A stretch of 7,126 nucleotides of DNA from an archaeon (GTDB taxonomy: Archaea > Iainarchaeota > Iainarchaeia > Iainarchaeales > CSSED10-239), in NCBI GenBank assembly GCA_037147375.1, contig JBAWVI010000049.1, positions 1-7,126 of the forward strand, given 5' to 3'. The notes beneath the pieces are model-generated. The model saw only the letters and a program-made list of their open reading frames with translations, was not told the origin of the DNA and ran no database searches. A program made the translations under genes and the position numbers. Below are positions 1 to 7,126 of this stretch, one piece after another. Position 1 is the first letter of the stretch, and each line of letters begins with the position of its first letter.

Positions 1-11
1 TATACATATAG

Positions 12-20
12 TATATAACT
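12..20 (+). promoter_or_regulatory. Candidate archaeal TATA-box-like element upstream of the large ORF
   Basis: tatataact lies at 12-20, roughly 35-40 nt upstream of the ATG at 53. It is bracketed by a 7-bp inverted repeat, ataacta (15-21) / tagttat (30-36). Such matches are frequent in this AT-rich background, so support is weak. Confidence 0.25.
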
Positions 21-31
21 ATAAGTTTGTA

Positions 32-59
32 GTTATTTATGAAAAGTTATTTATGAAAA
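32..59 (+). repeat. Perfect 14-nt tandem duplication (gttatttatgaaaa x2) spanning the start codon of the large ORF
   Basis: Positions 32-45 and 46-59 are identical by direct reading. Each copy contains an ATG (39-41 and 53-55). Confidence 0.9.
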
Positions 60-3000
60 AAGATAAGACATCAACTAATACAAGAGATGAAAAGAACAGT
101 GATACAGGTATCACTTTAAAGAAGATTGATTCAACTATAAGTGTATCTGATAATAATGATATTTCTGAAAAAGTAGATATTTCTCAAGAAATCACTTCAA
201 AGGTATCTTCTTCTATTGAGGTTACTGATGATGAAAGTAAGGAAAATATTTCAAAATATATACCCTTAAAAACAAGAACAATTAAGAAAAAAATAGTTGT
301 TTATGATTATGGCAAGCATAATCAAGATAATAAAAAAATAGAGCTCAATGATGTTAAGCTTCCTAAAATTAAACTTGTAAATGATGATGAAGAAAATTCG
401 AAGTCACTAAATCCAGATGGGTCTATTAAAAAGAAAGAAGATCCAACAGTTCAAATTAAAAGAATGGTTGTTGATGTTGAAGATAAGCCACATGTTCTTC
501 CTCCTAAAAATATTTCAAGTGAACCACCAAAGATCGAAGATGTAAAACCAATTATTTCTGTTACAGATATTTCAAAAGAAATATTTGATAATTTAGATAA
601 TCAGGTTCCTGTATCAGCTCCTTTTGTTGATACACCAGATTTACAACCAGCAGAACCAAAGATTGAAGATAATAAACCAATCATTCCAGTTACTGAAATT
701 TCAAAAGAAATATTTGATAATTTAGATAATCAGGTTCCTGTATCAGTTCCTTCTTTTGATACAAATGATTTAGATAAAACTGAAACAAAATTATTACAAG
801 AAGAACCTGAATTAATACCTACACAAGAACCAATGATTGTTCCTCAAGAATTTCCAGAAGTTGTTCCTCAAGAACTTCCTATGATTATTCCTCAGGAATT
901 GCCTGAAGTTATTCCTCAAGAATTACCAGCAATCATTCCTCAAGAACTTCTAACTGAGGTTTATGATTTTAAACCAGATGGAATACATGAACTTCCAGTA
1001 TCTATTCCACTTGATAAACTTCCTGAAACTTTAGAAAAACAATTCTTAGAAAAACAACAAAAAGAATTACAAGAAAGAATACAAAAAGAAATTGAAGATA
1101 CTTTAAAAGAAAGATATAATAAACTTGATTTAAAAAATGTAACTGTTGTTATTGAAGATAAAATAGTAAATGATAAAATAAATGAAACAATTCCTAAAAA
1201 ACCAGAAATTAAAATAATTATTGTTGAAGATATTAATAAATTATTATTAGAGCTTGATGAAAGAACAAAAACATTAATCTCTGATGACACTATGCTTGAA
1301 TTATATAGTTTTAGAGGTGAACTTCCAAAGGTAAGTAAAATATCCTATAAAACATATAATATTCAAAATTTATATTCAAAGATTGATGACCTTTCAAAAA
1401 TTGCAAAACAAAATTCAGCAAATGCTCAAATAAAGGTTAGTGATATTTCAGATACACAAATCCCACTTAGTTCAAAACAAAAATTTAAACAAGAACTTAA
1501 TGAAGATGCAATTATTGAAGAATTAATGATTCCAGAAATTATTCCAATTAAAGACAACATAACAGATATAGATAGTTTGGTTAATAATAAATTTAGCGAA
1601 TCAATTGAACTTAGAGACGAAAGTATGCAAATACCAACCTTTGTAGATTCAAAGTCTGGACCTGAATTAAATAAAAAGGTTCAGGATAATCTAAAAACAA
1701 TAAACGAAAATAAATTAAAAAAAGAACAAAGCAAACAAAATACTCAAAAACATAAATCCATTAATTCAATTGTGGATAGTAAGAAGGTTACTCCAACAAC
1801 ACAAAATCAAGAACATAAACAAAAGGAAATAGATCCAAGAATATCTCTTCTTGAAAAAGAATTAAAGGAAGAAAAAGAAAGATTTGATTCCTTTATTAGA
1901 CAAGAAAGAGATAAGCCAGTAAAAACTACAACTAATGAAATAGATCCAAAAACATATCTTCTTGAAAAAGAACTAAAGGAAGAGAAAGAAAGATTTAATA
2001 ATTATTTAAATCAAGAAATGAATAAGCCTATAGAAGCAAAAGAAATTAATCCTAGAGCACAAGTTCCAACAAATGAACCAACAGGAATAAATGCACCTAG
2101 AAAAGAGCAAAAACCAGAAAATGAAATTTATATAAATAAAGATCAAGTTCCAAAAAGTCAAGAAAAAGGAGTATCTTATATTCTTCCAAAGGATGCTAAA
2201 ATAAACTTTTCAAAAAATGCAGGGTATGTTGGACTTGAAGGCGTACAATCTACACCTCATACATTTAATTTTGAAAAAAATAAAATGCAATCTTTGGTTT
2301 ATTCAACACCAATGAATATTCTTGATTCAGATATAACAAAAGTATTTGAAAAGTATTCTCTTGATGATTTCACGTATGTTACAATTTCTTATATTAAGGG
2401 TAAAGGTTTATTCTATAACATGATTCAATTAGAATTAACTCCAGAGCAAAATAAAGTATTTTATGAAATTAAAAAAATATTTTTCAATTCAATAGATCAA
2501 AACTATTATACATTTAATGGAGATAAATACACTCTTGATCAATATACTCAAAAGATATTTGATATTTCTTTATCTAAACTATCTTATCAAGTTAATTCAC
2601 TTGATAAAAAATTATTTTATAAGTTCATACAAAGAGAATTTTCTGGACTTGGAATATTAACTGCACTATTATCTGATAAAAAGGTTCTTGAAGTTTCTTG
2701 TGCAGGAGAAAAAACAAGTGTTGTAGTGTACCATATGGAATACGGTACTCTTGAAACAAATATAAATTTTGATAATATAAATAAATTAAATCAATTTGTT
2801 CTTCTTTTAACTAAAAACATGGGGCTTTATGTAAACTCATCACACCCAATAATTGAAGGTTACCTTCCAAATGGATATAAGGTTGAGGGTTTATTTTCTG
2901 CAGGAGAACTAAGTAGCAAAGGTTCTTCATTTGTTATTAAGAAGTACTTAGATGCACCAATAACTCCAACCTCATTAATTAAAGCTGGAGTTGGAACTAT

Positions 3001-3682
3001 TGATGTGTTTGCTTATATTTGGAGTGCAATAAATGAAGATTATAAAATCATACTAACTGGTGATGATACTTCGTTTATATTCCTAAACTCAGTTGGTCTC
3101 TTATATCCTGATAAGAAAATAATTTCTGTTCAATCATATGATAGAATTAAGTTGCCACAAAAGCAATGGATAAAAAGAGTTGTTACTGGAAATGAAGAAG
3201 TGGATAAAAAAACAATAATACAACACACAGTGTCTGAAAGACCAGATTATATCTTTGTTGATGAATTTGGAAGTGATGTGTTTGATGTTCCATGGTATGC
3301 AATAAATTTATTTTATGTAACTTACAACCAAGTTCCACAATTAAGAGAAAACATAAGAACTATGGGTCAAAAAGCAATAATTATTGAATTACAAAAGCTT
3401 AAGATTGGATATAGTGAAAACACACAGATAATAAAAATTGAAGAAATTGTAGATAGAAACGATTTTATAACAATTGAGCTTTCAACTAAGGATAAAGCAT
3501 ACCATATGAATTTATTATCATCAACAATTGATATTGTTAATTTCAATAAGAGAAGGAAATACATGAGATGGTTAAGTGACACTAATATGGTTGACTATCG
3601 TGATTTTAATAATATAGTTAATGAGTTTTATGTTAACGAAGAAAAAGTTATAAAAAGATTAGGAATAGATATAACTGCATAA
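53..3682 (+). CDS. Giant FlaI/PilB/GspE-family (type II/IV secretion NTPase) homolog with degenerate nucleotide-binding motifs and a ~730-aa repeat-rich N-terminal extension; predicted pseudo-ATPase
   Basis: Uninterrupted 1209-codon ORF. From about aa 740 the sequence follows the FlaI-type layout: YSLDDFTYVTISYIKGKG...ELTPEQ (FlaI N-terminal domain pattern), FSGLGILTALLSDKKVLEVSCAG...VVVYH, IIEGYLPNGYKVEGLF, SSKGSSFVIKKY...ITPTSLI, FAYIWSAINEDYKIILTG. The expected GxxGxGK[ST] position reads GDDTSFIF. Confidence 0.85.
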   Translation: MKKDKTSTNTRDEKNSDTGITLKKIDSTISVSDNNDISEKVDISQEITSKVSSSIEVTDDESKENISKYIPLKTRTIKKKIVVYDYGKHNQDNKKIELNDVKLPKIKLVNDDEENSKSLNPDGSIKKKEDPTVQIKRMVVDVEDKPHVLPPKNISSEPPKIEDVKPIISVTDISKEIFDNLDNQVPVSAPFVDTPDLQPAEPKIEDNKPIIPVTEISKEIFDNLDNQVPVSVPSFDTNDLDKTETKLLQEEPELIPTQEPMIVPQEFPEVVPQELPMIIPQELPEVIPQELPAIIPQELLTEVYDFKPDGIHELPVSIPLDKLPETLEKQFLEKQQKELQERIQKEIEDTLKERYNKLDLKNVTVVIEDKIVNDKINETIPKKPEIKIIIVEDINKLLLELDERTKTLISDDTMLELYSFRGELPKVSKISYKTYNIQNLYSKIDDLSKIAKQNSANAQIKVSDISDTQIPLSSKQKFKQELNEDAIIEELMIPEIIPIKDNITDIDSLVNNKFSESIELRDESMQIPTFVDSKSGPELNKKVQDNLKTINENKLKKEQSKQNTQKHKSINSIVDSKKVTPTTQNQEHKQKEIDPRISLLEKELKEEKERFDSFIRQERDKPVKTTTNEIDPKTYLLEKELKEEKERFNNYLNQEMNKPIEAKEINPRAQVPTNEPTGINAPRKEQKPENEIYINKDQVPKSQEKGVSYILPKDAKINFSKNAGYVGLEGVQSTPHTFNFEKNKMQSLVYSTPMNILDSDITKVFEKYSLDDFTYVTISYIKGKGLFYNMIQLELTPEQNKVFYEIKKIFFNSIDQNYYTFNGDKYTLDQYTQKIFDISLSKLSYQVNSLDKKLFYKFIQREFSGLGILTALLSDKKVLEVSCAGEKTSVVVYHMEYGTLETNINFDNINKLNQFVLLLTKNMGLYVNSSHPIIEGYLPNGYKVEGLFSAGELSSKGSSFVIKKYLDAPITPTSLIKAGVGTIDVFAYIWSAINEDYKIILTGDDTSFIFLNSVGLLYPDKKIISVQSYDRIKLPQKQWIKRVVTGNEEVDKKTIIQHTVSERPDYIFVDEFGSDVFDVPWYAINLFYVTYNQVPQLRENIRTMGQKAIIIELQKLKIGYSENTQIIKIEEIVDRNDFITIELSTKDKAYHMNLLSSTIDIVNFNKRRKYMRWLSDTNMVDYRDFNNIVNEFYVNEEKVIKRLGIDITA
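521..781 (+). repeat. In-frame tandem duplication (~129-132 nt, two copies) encoding EP(P)KIED-KPII-VT-ISKEIFDNLDNQVPVS...
   Basis: Copy 1 starts at 521 and copy 2 at 653. A 49-nt core (atttcaaaagaaatatttgataatttagataatcaggttcctgtatcag) is perfectly identical at 569-617 and 698-746. Confidence 0.9.
800..961 (+). repeat. In-frame 24-nt (8-aa) tandem repeat, about 6-7 units, encoding PQE(L/F)P-x-(I/V)(I/V)
   Basis: Translation: EEPELIPTQEPMIVPQEFPEVVPQELPMIIPQELPEVIPQELPAIIPQELLTEV. The DNA unit attcctcaagaa... recurs with a 24-nt period. Confidence 0.9.
1826..2056 (+). repeat. In-frame ~111-nt (37-aa) tandem repeat, two full copies plus a partial third
   Basis: EIDPRISLLEKELKEEKERFDSFIRQERDKPVKTTTN starts at 1826 and EIDPKTYLLEKELKEEKERFNNYLNQEMNKPIEAK at 1937. 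A third initiation, EINPR, starts at 2042. Confidence 0.85.
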
Positions 3683-3706: not shown

Positions 3707-4552
3707 ATGTTTGGAAAAATATTTACGAAACTATCCACCTATTTTCTAGGGGAATTAGTTTCAAGATTTGAAAATAGATTTAAGAATTTCTCAAAGGTAT
3801 TAACTTATGCAAACATAAATGAAGACCCTACAACATATATATCAAATTCCTTATTTGCTTCTTTTCTTCTTTTCCTATTCTTAGAATTTGGAACTATTTT
3901 AATGATGATTAGACTAAATATTATGTTTGGTTTATTTTCATTTTTAATAACTATTTTATTATCTTTTACGTTTGCAGGATTGGTTTTCATACTCTTTTGT
4001 AAGTACCCTTACTACGTACTAGAATCGAAGAAGAAAGAAATTGATTATGAAATTGAAAACTCAATAAGGCACTTATCTGTTTTAGAAGATAAATCTTTAA
4101 CCATAAAGGATATATTAAATATTCTATTAAAACTTGAAAACAATAAACTATTATCTGAAGAAGCACAAAAGATATTAACTCTTTCAAGCATAAATTCAAA
4201 TATTAAAGATACTCTTCGTCAAGTTATTAAAGAAACATATTCTGAACTTGAAAAAAACTTCTTTAGAAGATTAATTGATGTTATTGATAATAAGGATCAA
4301 ATCGGTAAAGTAGTTAATGAATTTTTAGAAAGTCTTGAGCAATTAAGAAAAGAAACTAGTGAACAAAAGAAATCAAGCATAAATCTATTATTTGAAGTAA
4401 ATATATTTTTATTCTTTTTTGTAATTATTTTATTAACTAGTTTGTTTTTAGTTTCTCTTGATCAACAAACAATTAGAAGCTTATTAATGTTTATTGCAAT
4501 TGTGTTTCCTATAGTTGAATTTGTTTTAGTAGTTATATTATTTAAAGGTTAA
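3707..4552 (+). CDS. Polytopic membrane protein with one type II secretion system F (FlaJ/TadB/PilC-like) platform domain
   Basis: 281-aa ORF starting 24 nt after the ATPase-like gene. Layout: N-terminal cytoplasmic segment, a hydrophobic block (about aa 48-97), a ~125-aa charged helical region (EIDYEIENSIRHLSVLEDKSLTIKDILNILLKL...) and C-terminal TM helices. This TM / helical bundle / TM pattern and the position next to the ATPase are typical of T2SSF platform proteins. Confidence 0.7.
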   Translation: MFGKIFTKLSTYFLGELVSRFENRFKNFSKVLTYANINEDPTTYISNSLFASFLLFLFLEFGTILMMIRLNIMFGLFSFLITILLSFTFAGLVFILFCKYPYYVLESKKKEIDYEIENSIRHLSVLEDKSLTIKDILNILLKLENNKLLSEEAQKILTLSSINSNIKDTLRQVIKETYSELEKNFFRRLIDVIDNKDQIGKVVNEFLESLEQLRKETSEQKKSSINLLFEVNIFLFFFVIILLTSLFLVSLDQQTIRSLLMFIAIVFPIVEFVLVVILFKG

Positions 4553-4573: not shown

Positions 4574-5722
4574 ATGACAGAGATGAAATTTAAGCCAAGT
4601 AAACTAGAAGATGAGTTTACGTTATTTTTCTATAGTCATGAATATGATGTGTTAGAAATTGCTGGTATTCTCTCTGGGTTATTAATTATATTTATTACAA
4701 ACAGATTCTTTTTTCTAAGCTCTATTTATTATTTATTATTAATATTTGGAATTGTTGTTTGTTCACTTGGGTTCTTGCTTGAATATGTAATTAAATTTGC
4801 TAAAAAGAAAGCAATTGAACTTGAATTTGGATACTTTCTTCAAGATCTTTCAAGAGAGTATAAAAACACAAAAAATTTATCTATTGCAATAACTAATATT
4901 TCTAATAATAATACCTATGGTTCTGTGGACTCAGAGATTAGACGTATAGCAACTAGACTATCTTGGGGTGATGATTTCTATAATGCTTTATTATCAGTAA
5001 ATAAGGAAATAAGAAGTCCAATAATTCATCATACTCTTGTATTACTTGATACATTTAAAACAAGTGAGGTTCCTTTAAATAGAATTCTATTAAACATTTC
5101 AAAAGATATTTCTATTTATAGAGAAGAAAACTTAAAAAAGAAATATTTTAAGAATCTTTATTACTTAGCAATTGTTTTCTTTTCAATCTTCTTATTTGTA
5201 TTAGTTTATTTTGATTTACTTATTGGTAGAAATTTCTTATGGTATTCTACTACTGATGTAGTAACTAGAATATTCATTGATAATTTCTTATTGTATATTG
5301 GTTTGTTATTATCTTTCTTTACTGCATTTGTAATGCATTCTATTAAAGGAGGTAAGAGTATAGACTTCTTAAAATATATTGGTGTGTTCTTTATAATCGT
5401 AATTGTTTTATTTCAAGTGTTTATTCCAAAACCAACTGCAGATGATGTTCTTATTGAAAGTATAAATCATATGAAAGAGAGTGGAGAAACAAATATAGTT
5501 TTAGAAAGGATAATTTCTCTTGAATCAATTAGTTCAAAGTATATTAGTGAGAATGTTAGAACTGATCAAATTTATTTCATTAATGGAAAGACAAGAAGTA
5601 CTTGTGATATTAAGTGTATAGAATACACTATCTTAGTTGATGATGCTACATTCTATAATTTTAATATAATTAGAGATGGAGATAAATTTATTATTTATTA
5701 TTATGTAGTTATTGAATTGTAA
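4574..5722 (+). CDS. Polytopic membrane protein with one type II secretion system F (FlaJ/TadC/PilC-like) platform domain plus a ~95-aa C-terminal non-membrane extension
   Basis: 382-aa ORF starting 21 nt after the previous gene. Two N-terminal TM helices are followed by a cytoplasmic segment (FGYFLQDLSREYKNTKNLSIAITNIS...GSVDSEIRRIATRLSWGDDFYNALLSV) that fits the T2SSF pattern (hP-x-hL-x-hL...G-x-s-h-x-x-A-h ... G-x-x-h-x-x-A-L). About three more TM helices follow, then a soluble Cys-containing tail. Confidence 0.75.
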   Translation: MTEMKFKPSKLEDEFTLFFYSHEYDVLEIAGILSGLLIIFITNRFFFLSSIYYLLLIFGIVVCSLGFLLEYVIKFAKKKAIELEFGYFLQDLSREYKNTKNLSIAITNISNNNTYGSVDSEIRRIATRLSWGDDFYNALLSVNKEIRSPIIHHTLVLLDTFKTSEVPLNRILLNISKDISIYREENLKKKYFKNLYYLAIVFFSIFLFVLVYFDLLIGRNFLWYSTTDVVTRIFIDNFLLYIGLLLSFFTAFVMHSIKGGKSIDFLKYIGVFFIIVIVLFQVFIPKPTADDVLIESINHMKESGETNIVLERIISLESISSKYISENVRTDQIYFINGKTRSTCDIKCIEYTILVDDATFYNFNIIRDGDKFIIYYYVVIEL

Positions 5723-5801: not shown

Positions 5802-6152
5802 TTGTTATATAATGTTTCAAAGAAGAAAACAATTCTTAATAAAGTTAAGATTGCAGACACTGAATTTAAGCAAGCTCTTGGACTTATGTTTTCAAGAAGA
5901 AGTAAGTTTAATTATTGTTTAATATTTTCAAGACCAACTTCATCAATTATAGGTTCATCTATACATATGATGTTTGTGTTTTATCCAATCACAGTTATCT
6001 TTCTTGATGAAAATAAGAAAGTAGTTGATATTAAAAAGAAAGTAATTCCATTTTGGTTTTATGCTCCTAAGAAACCAGCAAAGTATATACTTGAAATGCC
6101 TACAAGTACAAACATAAATTCCGTAAATGTAAATGATAGATTTAAATGGTAA
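5802..6152 (+). CDS. DUF192 (COG1430-like) family small protein
   Basis: 116 aa. The pattern matches the DUF192 layout as I recall it: V-x-h-A-x-T-x-x-x-x-x-x-GLM near the N-terminus (VKIADTEFKQALGLMF), a central hMhxxxxPhxhhFhDxxxxVV block (HMMFVFYPITVIFLDENKKVVDI) and a C-terminal A-x-YhLEh block (AKYILEMP). Confidence 0.65.
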   Translation: MLYNVSKKKTILNKVKIADTEFKQALGLMFSRRSKFNYCLIFSRPTSSIIGSSIHMMFVFYPITVIFLDENKKVVDIKKKVIPFWFYAPKKPAKYILEMPTSTNINSVNVNDRFKW

Positions 6153-6214: not shown

Positions 6215-7126
6215 ATGACGCAAAATGAAATTAAAACTTTAGAAGATATAGATAAGAAATCTATTTCTTCAATTATAGTTGTAATCTTAATTGTATTAAT
6301 TGCAGTTATTTTAATAGGTATGATTCTTACTTGGTCTAAAGATACTGTAAAAACTAAATTAGATGATGCTACAGAGAATATGAAAGTGTTATCTGAACTA
6401 GAATGTAGTAATGCTAAGTATGAAGTTGAGTTTTGTAATATTAACACAGTAACTAAGAATATAGATTTTTTAATAACAAATAATTCAGGGGTTGACTTTT
6501 CTTATTTTACTTTATCTGTGTTTGGTAAGAATATTTCTGGAGATTCTATGGTAGTTACAGGTTTATTTAATACAAATATTAGTAGTGGTTCTTCTAAGTT
6601 ATTGTCTACAAATTCAGATTACTATAGTGTTGTTAAACAAGATTCAAATTTATCTTTATTAGATTTAGATCAAGAATATACTTTCAATTTAGTAAGTGCA
6701 ACTTGTCCAAATTCAGTTGTTGATTTATCTTGTACTTCTGCAGCAGAATATACTTCATCACCAATTTTTTCAATACCTGATGGTAATTATTATTTATCTC
6801 AAAACGTAATTATATCCACAGATTCTGATGCAGTTATTTATTATACACTTGATGGAACTAATCCAACTACAAGTAGTTTAGTTTATTCAAGTGCAATTAA
6901 CCTTCTTGAAGATACAACTACAACAATTAAAGCAATTGCAGTTAAGCCAGGATATTTAGAAAGTACAGTATCCACAGGAACATATATTATTACACATACA
7001 CTAACAACTCTAGGTGCATCTCCAGCTGCAGGTTCTTATTATTCTATTCAAAATGTGACTTTATCAGGAGAAGCTGGTTCAACCATTTATTACACAATAG
7101 ATGGATCAACACCAACTACAGGAAGT
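6215..7126 (+). CDS. Archaeal type IV pilin-like protein (class III signal peptide / Pilin_N-like N-terminus) fused to repeated Fn3_assoc / CHB_HEX_C-like surface domains; 3' end truncated by the window
   Basis: This ORF is absent from the supplied track because it has no stop codon in the window. An in-frame TAA at 6209-6211 precedes ATG 6215, and 304 codons then stay open to the last base. The N-terminus is MTQNEIKTLEDIDKKS-ISSIIVVILIVLIAVILIGMILTW: a charged leader ending KK-S, then a ~20-residue hydrophobic helix resembling the archaeal pilin N-terminal consensus ([21 protein letters not shown]). Downstream, YYTLDGTNPTTSS...IKAIAVKPGY..S and again YYTIDGSTPTTGS match the signature I recall for Fn3_assoc/CHB_HEX_C domains. 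Confidence 0.7.
   Translation, partial: MTQNEIKTLEDIDKKSISSIIVVILIVLIAVILIGMILTWSKDTVKTKLDDATENMKVLSELECSNAKYEVEFCNINTVTKNIDFLITNNSGVDFSYFTLSVFGKNISGDSMVVTGLFNTNISSGSSKLLSTNSDYYSVVKQDSNLSLLDLDQEYTFNLVSATCPNSVVDLSCTSAAEYTSSPIFSIPDGNYYLSQNVIISTDSDAVIYYTLDGTNPTTSSLVYSSAINLLEDTTTTIKAIAVKPGYLESTVSTGTYIITHTLTTLGASPAAGSYYSIQNVTLSGEAGSTIYYTIDGSTPTTGS
6741..7126 (+). other. At least two tandem Fn3_assoc / chitobiase-C-like domains within the pilin-like ORF
   Basis: Domain 1 spans about 6741-6990 (SSPIFSIPDGNYYLSQNVIISTDSDAVIYYTLDGTNPTTSSLVYSSAINLLEDTTTTIKAIAVKPGYLESTVSTGTYII). Domain 2 starts about 6991 (ASPAAGSYYSIQNVTLSGEAGSTIYYTIDGSTPTTGS...) and runs off the window. Confidence 0.6.

Follow-up and report, generated by a model that had tools for sequence, protein, structure and literature searches.

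A long N-terminal arm, predicted to be mostly disordered, with conserved islands on a degenerate FlaI/GspE-like protein of Iainarchaeota type-IV-filament loci

The window, that is, the whole stretch of 7,126 nucleotides analysed here, contains on its forward strand (as are all features given below) a fused ORF of 1209 aa (53..3682; NCBI MEI8364521.1, annotated as "hypothetical protein"), in which a degenerate FlaI/GspE-like core is preceded by an N-terminal extension of aa 1-746 (53..2290). The extension could have been taken for the oddity of one gene, but it is a family trait of a lineage specific to the Iainarchaeota (DPANN), to which the tiny, symbiotic-type archaeon of the window belongs. 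Throughout this family the Walker A motif of the core is lost, and the extension consists of short conserved islands separated by linkers of variable length. The reading preferred here, at a probability judged slightly above even, is that the extension is a genuine, translated, family-specific disordered arm on a non-catalytic FlaI/GspE-type scaffold and that its islands recruit partners.

The joining of extension and core in one frame, as proposed in the initial annotation, was confirmed: no stop codon interrupts the 1209 codons of 53..3682, and approximately 745 aa stand before the core. The two remaining forward frames contain 50 and 130 stops along the extension, so that in DNA of 26% GC the open frame extends far beyond chance. 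The ATG at position 53 is kept across an alignment of five loci, and the intergenic region upstream of it (1..52) is strongly conserved in these loci, more so than the N-terminal part of the coding sequence. This region includes a TATA-like box (TATATAAC, nt 12-19), a putative promoter element. The start region also carries a 14-bp tandem duplication (31..59), which is present in the window and in loci L001 and L002, absent in L022 and L023, and creates a uORF of five codons (ATG39..TGA56) overlapping ATG53. No RNA families were detected in the window by Rfam.

Complete ORFs of the fused gene are found in several independent assemblies, which excludes a sequencing error hiding a stop codon, and 30 homologues are full-length. 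Indels among the homologues preserve the frame of the extension. An internally initiated form starting from the Met at 2286 (Met745) had been suggested; it is unlikely, and this start is rejected because the residue is not conserved: P0003 and P0004, both close homologues, have I or V in its place, and the distant ones lack it. More generally, an annotation artefact, in which an internal start or the misjoining of two genes would leave the upstream 2.2 kb untranslated in this protein, has nothing in its favour except the unusual length and the frameshift-split genes of L036 and of the pair P0022/P0007, though these are broken elsewhere than at the arm/core junction. The full-length ORFs, the frame-preserving indels, the purifying selection described below, the conserved ATG53 with its upstream region, the unconserved Met745 and the stops of the alternative frames all count against it, and on sequence grounds it appears effectively refuted, with hardly any probability left.

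Relatives of the protein were collected by a core-only query and by an exhaustive search with a profile of the extension; a word-indexed search with the full-length sequence returned just four relatives, with low-complexity words interfering. In the exhaustive HMMER search of 1.84 billion (1.84e9) proteins, the extension profile gave 18 matches, all from one Iainarchaeota (Diapherotrites) family, located N-terminally in proteins of 791-1132 aa or in fragments. The survey of homologue lengths against the loss of Walker A resulted in complete co-occurrence. In detail, an extension of 327-745 aa is present in each of the 30 full-length members, that of the window being the longest, and the G.{4}GK[ST] regex has no match in any of the 30. 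At E<=1, no Pfam family is found on aa 1-746, the GSPII/T2SSE_N profile (PF05157) included, and no PDB sequence matches the profile of aa 296-745. NCBIfam, PDB sequence and Foldseek searches showed no relatives of the extension either.

The bias of the extension towards K, E, D, N, I and P was borne out, as these six residues compose 13.1, 11.2, 8.0, 6.8, 10.6 and 7.6% of it, respectively. G (1.5%) and A (1.6%) are scarce, W and C are absent, charged residues amount to 34% and the mean hydropathy is -0.84. The absence of a hydrophobic segment holds as well, the highest 19-residue Kyte-Doolittle mean in aa 1-735 being 0.74; with neither a signal peptide nor a TM segment, the extension is of cytoplasmic type. 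The net charge is -30 in the window protein and is not conserved in the family (a tract of P0011, for instance, is strongly basic). Since the net charge flips between family members, a nucleic-acid-binding or charge-based role was rejected; a mechanism based on charge is thus unlikely, and no particular partner is indicated.

Three tandem repeat families, as initially reported, were recovered by two tools. The first is a 43-aa (129-bp) repeat in two copies at aa 157-242 (521..778; 84-88% nt and 74% aa identity), the second a PQELPxxI octapeptide (24-bp) in ~5 copies (~813..950), and the third a 37-aa (111-bp) repeat, IDPxxxLLEKELKEEKERF..., in two copies at aa 593-666 (1829..2050; 79-84% nt identity), each predicted as a helix. 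Their copy numbers differ among homologues: the 129-bp repeat is found 2, 2, 1 and 0 times in four close homologues, the octapeptide varies likewise and the 111-bp unit is single in the other close homologues. Different lineages show independent linker repeats, for instance ISKKEVPLDKVDNSN in five copies in Forterrea.

Disorder was judged by proxies, namely pLDDT, charge-hydropathy, dN/dS and repeat copy number. In the AF2 models, about three quarters of the arm has pLDDT<50. The first 315 residues are entirely below this value and show no secondary structure, and aa 296-746 are mostly below it, barring isolated helices at aa 320-356, 394-412, 437-464, 541-562, 595-619 and 632-655. The monomer models of the extension contain single amphipathic or charged helices; the best-predicted element is the long amphipathic charged helix of aa 320-356 (1010..1120; pLDDT 77-84 and 60-75), with a hydrophobic spacing of mostly 4-4-4 and not the 3-4 of coiled-coil heptads. 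By charge-hydropathy, blocks aa 296-450 and 451-550 fall among "folded" sequences. Low pLDDT, low hydropathy with high charge, indel-rich fast linkers and short conserved islands are thus found together, which places the arm in the class of disordered regions with motifs. The proposed disorder stands for most of the extension, which is repeat-rich and largely of pLDDT<50, but it is not uniform, because the islands are as constrained as the core.

The plain "tentacle" of the first description is replaced, on the basis of the alignments and dN/dS, by a string of five conserved islands with variable linkers. Island M0 (aa 19-28, GITLKKIDST; 107..136) matches the N-terminal tip of the family, MVELKKLxRI. 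Island M1 (aa 392-449, DINKLL..SFxGxLPKVSKISYKTYNIQNLYSKIDDLSK; 1226..1399) is conserved family-wide. It is followed in the alignment by M2 (aa 486-517, AIIEELxIPEIIPIKDN..NNKFSES; 1508..1603) and by M3 (aa 527-548, IPTFVDSKSGPELNKKVxDNL; 1631..1696), where AF2 predicts a hairpin and the start of a helix. Island M4 (aa 708-715, SYILPKDA; 2174..2197) has the family consensus FDYILPKD. The islands are duplicated in some members, and the length of the linkers varies by lineage-specific tandem duplication.

Selection is distributed along the protein in the same pattern. The extension as a whole has a dN/dS of 0.24-0.40 versus 0.04-0.09 for the core. Within it, the values are 0.13-0.27 for aa 296-450 (including M1) and 0.06-0.14 for aa 481-550 (M2 and M3), and the linkers range from 0.3 to 1.07, with aa 451-480 evolving near-neutrally (0.5-1.07). 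Between the window and the near-identical strain of L001, aa 296-550 differ by 13 synonymous and 0 non-synonymous changes. The conserved start and upstream region, together with these ratios, indicate that the extension is translated and functional.

A different structure for the constrained part deserves consideration. Islands M1-M3 (aa about 392-550) may form a small cryptic alpha/beta domain, a functional analogue of the bacterial PilB/GspE N1 domain that would bind a small ligand or a partner associated with the platform; the remainder of the arm would then be only linker. The dN/dS of its blocks (0.06-0.27), the predicted hairpins and helices, the "folded-side" charge-hydropathy value and the persistence of the block as a stand-alone 235-aa protein (see below) are consistent with this, and bacterial N1 domains are likewise flexible and poorly resolved (PMC11656802). 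Furthermore, AF2 had few sequences to work from (alignments of 18 and 5), so the low confidence at M1-M3 may conceal a small folded domain. On the other hand, pLDDT is 40-57 across most of M1-M2, the block is split by the near-neutral linker of aa 451-480, which varies in length, and neither GSPII/T2SSE_N nor any other Pfam or PDB match is found. A folded domain is therefore regarded as possible but doubtful.

The core (aa 747-1209; 2291..3679; pLDDT 80-90) shows by AF2, Foldseek and phmmer the two-lobed NTD+CTD fold of the FlaI/GspE/PilB-type ATPase superfamily. Its best support comes from 2oap (Foldseek TMt 0.73, E 7e-30; phmmer 9.7e-40) and from FlaI 4ii7/4ihq (Foldseek E about 1e-28). The expected start of the core near aa 740 agrees with a boundary at about aa 735-747, which is deduced from the alignment of FlaI 4ii7 residue 27 with aa 762, that of position 25 of the NCBIfam FlaI model with aa 759, and the climb of AF2 confidence from about aa 747.

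The fold is kept, but the nucleotide site is not. At the degenerate Walker A position (aa 1000-1013, ILTGDDTSFIFLNS; 3050..3091), the GETASGKTTTLNA of 2oap aligns to GDDTS--FIFLNS, where a two-residue deletion takes out the GK. The Walker B region (aa 1063-1072, RPDYIFVDEF; 3239..3268) retains the D-E pair in the window's clade (VDEF), whereas most of the family has LDNF, LDTF, VENF or VDKF, the pair being changed to N/T/K/Q/H/Y/V and the Glu mostly lost. The Asp box (SIEDTREI, aligned to SVQSYDRI here) and the His box (TGHASYS, aligned to INLFYVTYN) are both degenerate. In line with this, PF00437 (T2SSE) has no match in the window protein at E<=0.1, the NCBIfam FlaI model NF058587 stays below threshold (116.5 bits, cut-off 550) and PilB3_C scores 26.9 against a cut-off of 27. 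As far as these alignments go, the core is a catalytically dead pseudo-ATPase.

These losses also bear on the number of arms. Six flexible arms on a hexamer had been envisaged; however, FlaI/GspE hexamer formation is reportedly nucleotide-dependent (Reindl 2013; Yamagata and Tainer 2007), and with every nucleotide-binding motif lost here the picture is weakened and would be inference only. With nucleotide-dependent hexamerization gone, the arm could instead be a self-assembly device that joins subunits or cross-links neighbouring machines, and does not recruit other proteins; its strand-like islands would act in this together with the amphipathic helices (aa 320-356, 437-464, 595-655). The long amphipathic or charged helices are indeed the best-predicted elements of the arm, and one helix unit is tandemly duplicated in the window protein. 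Nevertheless, the helix-rich stretch of aa 551-704 ranks among the least conserved parts, and most members lack it or have another sequence there, the family-wide islands M1-M4 differ from the long helices, and the stand-alone M1-M3 protein has no core to assemble. Self-assembly as the function of the arm is considered conceivable, though not likely.

The loss of the catalytic motifs and the fast-evolving, repeat-prone linkers, whose dN/dS reaches about 1 in aa 451-480, would also suit evolutionary debris, that is, a decaying ATPase gene which gathers functionless low-complexity sequence. Against this, the core evolves at a dN/dS of 0.04-0.09 and retains its fold, the islands are kept across members with 42-58% core identity, and about 20 loci retain the operon. 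Debris is already unlikely, and very little weight is given to it.

The fused gene is followed in the window by two platform protein genes, the first of 281 aa with a T2SSF profile match (3707..4552) and the second of 382 aa with a weak T2SSF match (4574..5722). A DUF192 gene (5802..6152; profile match) comes next, which locus comparison shows to be always the last of the operon. The remaining truncated ORF (6215..7126) has full-length equivalents in L002 and L023; it begins with a charged and then hydrophobic, pilin-like N-terminus followed by adhesin-type CHB_HEX_C_1/Fn3_assoc repeats, and is a candidate pilin or adhesin. The order class III signal peptidase, fused gene, PilC1, PilC2, DUF192 is found in all loci with enough sequence except L019, in which the fused gene is directly followed by DUF192 and no platform genes were detected. 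For instance, Peptidase_A24/Arc_PepC_II, the fused gene, T2SSF and T2SSF-like genes are arranged in this way in L001, L002, L023 and some 18 further loci. The archaeal TFF system 1 is recognized by a cluster of just this composition, in which a dedicated class III signal peptidase accompanies an ATPase homologue and two separate platform genes.

In a single genome (L034/L035), a stand-alone gene of 235 aa with M1-M3 is placed directly upstream of DUF192, and core, platform and peptidase genes are absent from that genome region. This gene could be the remnant of an operon deletion and not a working protein. A second stand-alone candidate, P0030, was rejected as a full gene fragmented by frameshifts. 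The series of arm, core, platform and DUF192 in most loci, arm, core and DUF192 in L019, and the arm alone beside DUF192 in L034/L035 fits an alternative in which the arm is an autonomous adaptor (M1-M3) working with DUF192, and the dead core merely its anchor to the pilus platform. This alternative is held to be unlikely.

Intact ATPases of the superfamily are present in related genomes, at least two of which carry a separate intact Fe-S/T2SSE ATPase. In L016, a Fer4+T2SSE ATPase (10080-11870) is encoded 3 kb downstream of the fused gene, and the contig of the L021 homologue has an intact one as well. On the contigs of the closest homologues, none was found within 10 kb. The one hint of an intact ATPase in the window's organism is that the intact P0046 and the homologue P0003 come from the same ENA sample with similar GC, though they are not tied to one genome. 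P0039 was rejected as the intact ATPase of the window's organism, since it comes from an unrelated assembly.

According to the preferred reading of a recruiting arm on a non-catalytic scaffold, this Iainarchaeota locus is a type-IV-filament locus resembling the archaeal system 1, and its arm is organized like beads on a string, M0-M4 and a few isolated helices being separated by low-complexity linkers. Linker length drifts via tandem duplication, the window lineage having reached the longest form. The core, no longer binding or hydrolysing ATP, would have the structural task of docking on its cognate platform protein, which is split, and the islands of the flexible arm would act as binding motifs that capture partners and concentrate them at the machine's base. 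Such partners could be the co-conserved DUF192 protein, the signal peptidase, the platform proteins through their cytoplasmic domains, or the intact Fe-S/T2SSE ATPase that related genomes encode separately.

A hexameric ATPase motor, whose variable N-terminal parts are suspected adaptor surfaces, is assumed to be required by type-IV-filament machines, and DPANN archaea are believed to depend on cell-cell contact. Here, an entire lineage-specific family of DPANN archaea has a motor homologue with no nucleotide site, under strong purifying selection and with a long disordered arm of conserved candidate docking motifs. If the scaffold reading is true, it is a natural secretion-ATPase pseudoenzyme, and such machines can split "docking and recruitment" from "energy supply"; concrete candidates for interactions are also given, in islands M0-M4, in DUF192 and in the Fe-S ATPase. 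If, on the contrary, the arm is an adaptor working with DUF192, it would represent a previously unrecognized cytoplasmic adaptor system of DPANN archaea, and might pass one active Fe-S ATPase on to different platforms or link the assembly of filaments with some other process in the cell. The organisms are uncultivated, and the immediate impact is thus confined to heterologous and structural work.

Among known systems, FlaI (ArlI) and afGspE (4ii7/4ihq, 2oap) share the two-lobed fold of the window core (aa 747-1209). They comprise about 510 aa and begin where this core begins, whereas the window protein has 745 extra N-terminal residues. Their Walker A and B motifs, Asp and His boxes are intact and they form hexamers with nucleotide, in contrast to the P-loop deletion and degenerate boxes found here.

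The archaeal TFF system 1 (Epd-like), reported in DPANN, combines an ATPase with two platform genes and a signal peptidase of its own (bioRxiv 10.64898/2026.04.22.720090; PMC4858521), and the locus described here has the same gene set with an ATPase homologue. Subsystem-specific N-terminal additions of TFF ATPases have been proposed as interfaces for accessory proteins in the same preprint, which reports "functional ATPase binding motifs" and extra parts that are domains (bioRxiv 10.64898/2026.04.22.720090); in Makarova et al. (2016), the additions are small Cys-rich domains (PMC4858521). Those ATPases combine functional motifs with added domains, unlike the present family, in which the addition is mostly disordered, 327-745 aa long, and the motifs are lost. 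Neither Diapherotrites/Iainarchaeota nor inactivated ATPases are mentioned in these two papers.

The N1 domains of bacterial assembly ATPases are, as in the window protein, a flexible N-terminal add-on. They are folded, of about 100-150 aa, with a recognizable profile and often c-di-GMP binding; the window extension, on the contrary, is several-fold longer, mostly predicted disordered, lacks Pfam and PDB matches and is attached to a dead core. In Thermus PilF, the N-terminal parts can be multiplied. The contacts of the N1 domains (GSPII/MshEN) of PilB, GspE, MshE and PilF are with the stator or GspL-type partners and with regulators (PMC11656802).

The intact Fer4-T2SSE ATPases of Iainarchaeota and Micrarchaeota (for example in L016, P0077 and P0046) belong to the same superfamily and the same genomes or lineage as the window family. 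Similarly to it, they have an N-terminal addition and are followed by two small platform-like genes. They differ in that their addition, about 100 aa long, folds as a 4Fe-4S ferredoxin-type domain, their P-loop GSGKTT is intact, their loci include neither DUF192 nor a signal peptidase, and their identity to the window core is about 22%. In the literature searched, no description of this family, of such an extension, of dead archaeal TFF ATPases or of a link between DUF192 and pili was found. In conclusion, the dead core with its long disordered arm is undescribed in that literature and is a variant of the known variable N-terminal add-ons of pilus ATPases.

The window spans a MAG contig of 7126 bp in full. 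Its large ORF (53..3682, forward strand, 1209 aa; deposited as MEI8364521.1, "hypothetical protein") lies in DNA of ~26% GC and ends in a FlaI/GspE-fold core (aa 747-1209). In phmmer comparisons this core matched the afGspE structure 2oap (9.7e-40) and FlaI 4ii7 (8.9e-26), with FlaI residue 27 pairing with aa 762. The NCBIfam FlaI model covers aa 759-1072, at 116 bits far under its 550-bit cut-off, while the sole Pfam match of the protein was a borderline PilB3_C (aa 1164-1206) and T2SSE gave none. Since the phmmer and NCBIfam alignments place the beginning of the core there, ~745 residues stand ahead of the usual FlaI-type start, in agreement with the ~730 aa of the initial annotation.

The two other forward frames over this extension (aa 1-746) contain 50 and 130 stops, and its open frame is therefore not a chance product of AT-rich DNA. 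In four close homologues, of 1073-1209 aa and 65-75% identity, the gene is likewise one unbroken ORF, and ATG53 with roughly 100 nt upstream is kept in five loci, with a TATA-like box 34-41 nt upstream. The alternative of an internal start at Met745 did not hold, as the related proteins P0003 and P0004 have I or V at this place and more distant members lack the residue. By the Nei-Gojobori method, dN/dS is 0.24-0.40 in the extension and 0.04-0.09 in the core. In detail, it falls to 0.06-0.14 at aa 481-550 and 0.13-0.27 at aa 296-450, is 0.3-0.6 in the variable parts of the extension and reaches 0.5-1.07 in the linker aa 451-480. Between the window and its near-identical strain L001, aa 296-550 show 13 synonymous and no non-synonymous differences. 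The extension is translated and constrained; its explanation as an annotation artefact is essentially excluded, and so is decay.

The differences from L001 are clustered in window 938-1702: the core, of 463 codons, has two synonymous ones and aa 551-746 have none, a distribution resembling a recombination patch. The intergenic stretch that separates the ORF from the signal peptidase gene (window 1-52 and the corresponding regions of L001, L002, L022 and L023) is better conserved than the first 60 codons and holds two TATA-like boxes, suggesting that a promoter or regulatory element is conserved here. A perfect 14-bp tandem duplication (AGTTATTTATGAAA x2, window 31-59) copies the start-codon region, and the resulting five-codon uORF (ATG39..TGA56) overlaps the real ATG53; the duplication is found in the window, L001 and L002 and is absent from L022 and L023. 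In L036 (2510-3990) and P0022/P0007 the gene is frameshifted inside the extension or the core, through either an assembly error or pseudogenization.

The core has lost its catalytic motifs. The P-loop of 2oap, GETASGKTTTLNA, pairs in the alignment with GDDTS--FIFLNS of the window, which includes a two-residue deletion (window 3050-3091). None of the 30 full-length family members has GxxxxGK[ST], most of them miss the Walker B glutamate (window region 3239-3268), and the Asp and His boxes are degenerate. As the loss of Walker A holds in all 30 members, it is not a sequencing problem, and by sequence the core is a conserved pseudo-ATPase. Its fold and strong purifying selection have been kept despite the loss of the motifs, and a non-catalytic role for the protein is thus indicated.

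The survey of homologues proposed by the initial annotation showed complete co-occurrence of the extension with Walker A loss (30/30), the extension ranging from 327 to 745 aa (median 399) and being longest in the window. In a HMMER search of 1.84 billion representative proteins, the extension profile matched 18, each match lying either N-terminally in a protein of 791-1132 aa or in a fragment. The labels of the genomic relatives (Candidatus Iainarchaeum, Diapherotrites, Ca. Forterrea multitransposorum) assign the family to the DPANN phylum Iainarchaeota.

The extension has the composition first ascribed to it, that is, no hydrophobic segment (highest 19-residue Kyte-Doolittle mean 0.74) and a strong bias (K 13, E 11, I 11, D 8, P 8 and N 7%), with G, A, W and C nearly absent and a net charge of -30. 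TRF and a repeat finder both recovered the three tandem repeat families: 129 bp x2 (43-aa unit, nt 521-778), 24 bp x about 5 (octapeptide PQELPxxI, nt 813-950) and 111 bp x2 (37-aa unit, nt 1829-2050). A motif I-K-x-hydrophobic-hydrophobic-V-(E/D)-D occurs three times (nt 453-486, 1144-1161 and 1206-1227; aa 135-145, 363-370 and 386-393) and is similar to the N-terminal tip motif of the family.

The suggested disorder of the extension stands for most of its length, but not for all of it. AlphaFold2 gave pLDDT<50 without secondary structure for aa 1-315 (run on aa 1-460); in a run on aa 296-1209 the core reached 80-90 and aa 296-746 remained largely <50. The exceptions are two small hairpins and a set of isolated helices (aa 320-356, 394-412, 437-464, 541-562, 595-619 and 632-655); self-assembly through the arm helices is a rival, less likely explanation of what the arm does. 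Foldseek matches were confined to the core. Neither Pfam on the extension alone nor a PDB search with a profile of aa 296-745 returned anything at E<=1.

Alignment of the window protein with distant members (42-58% core identity) defined five conserved islands. M0 is the N-terminal tip, MVELKKLxRI in the family and ITLKKI in the window (aa 20-25, after 19 clade-specific residues); M1 (aa 392-449), M2 (aa 486-517), M3 (aa 527-548) and M4 (aa 708-715, FDYILPKD) follow. The linkers between them differ greatly in length and sequence across the family. Repeat copy numbers vary even between the four homologues closest to the window: the 43-aa unit is found in 2/2/1/0 copies and the octapeptide in 4-7, and the 37-aa unit is doubled in the window alone. 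Ca. Forterrea has its own unrelated repeat (ISKKEVPLDKVDNSN x5), other lineages likewise have unrelated ones, and in some an island itself is duplicated. Islands with variable linkers form the pattern expected for a disordered region with short binding motifs, not for a globular domain. A rival, less likely reading takes M1-M3 as a cryptic folded domain, a counterpart of N1/GSPII in bacteria.

The locus order is class III signal peptidase, dead-ATPase gene, platform genes 1 and 2, and DUF192, at every locus with enough sequence except L019. There (8867-11790) DUF192 directly follows the dead-ATPase gene, and no platform genes were detected between the two in this MAG. DUF192 (COG1430; window 5802-6152) is the constant last gene in about 18 loci; no literature linking it to pili was found. 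In L034 (2845-3907) and L035 (1340-2402), a stand-alone 235-aa gene with M1-M3 lies immediately upstream of DUF192. The neighbourhood otherwise shows synteny to the operon's downstream end, and these contigs yielded no core, platform or peptidase gene. The 235-aa ORF is intact, with 20 and 23 stops in its other frames, and is identical in the two contigs, which differ by 0.8% elsewhere.

In the clade of the window, genes after the operon encode candidate pilins or adhesins of the system, each with a pilin-like N-terminus and CHB_HEX_C_1/Fn3_assoc repeats. The window carries one such ORF (6215-7126), cut off at the contig end, with a charged-then-hydrophobic N-terminus before the repeats; homologous loci have two or three, the longest reaching 1034 aa.

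At least two related genomes also carry an intact paralogue that has a 4Fe-4S domain at its N-terminus and two small platform-like genes of its own. In L016 this set (10080-13475) lies 3 kb downstream, next to the dead-ATPase operon, and the paralogue shares a 57.6-kb contig with the L021 homologue; in the clade of the window it is tied by same-sample co-occurrence only (P0046 with P0003). This ferredoxin-type ATPase (also L030 4001-5749 and L025-L029) is widespread in Iainarchaeota and Micrarchaeota, and besides the platform-like genes a VTT-domain gene often follows it.

The family thus combines a private, mostly predicted disordered arm bearing conserved islands with a dead yet conserved FlaI-fold core in a conserved operon. 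The core may play a structural part, docking on its platform, and the arm may act as a flexible scaffold whose islands would bind partners, DUF192 being, from comparative genomics, the most persistent candidate. Unfolded chains scale with Rg about 0.19 x N^0.59 nm, which gives an estimate near 9 nm for a 745-residue arm; in cells with a diameter of a few hundred nm this would be a considerable capture radius. The picture of a hexamer with six arms is uncertain, because nucleotide-driven hexamerisation cannot operate in a dead core.

As in the initial annotation, such an extension is not known to have a described function; the literature search found no account of this arm/dead-ATPase family. 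The family would be of note to those who study archaeal surface machines or pseudoenzymes. Its organisms are uncultivated and the mechanism is a proposed one. The locus, in which an ATPase homologue is joined by two platform genes and its dedicated peptidase, resembles the archaeal type-IV-filament "system 1" reported in DPANN. Variable N-terminal additions on archaeal filament ATPases are already known (bioRxiv 10.64898/2026.04.22.720090; PMC4858521) and an interface role has been proposed for them (bioRxiv 10.64898/2026.04.22.720090), while the N1 domains of bacterial PilB/GspE are flexible modules binding partners and ligands (PMC11656802). The additions of the present family differ from these in their size (327-745 aa), their mainly predicted disordered, beads-on-a-string organization, their restriction, as far as homologues can be detected, to one Iainarchaeota family, and their strict association with the loss of all ATPase motifs.
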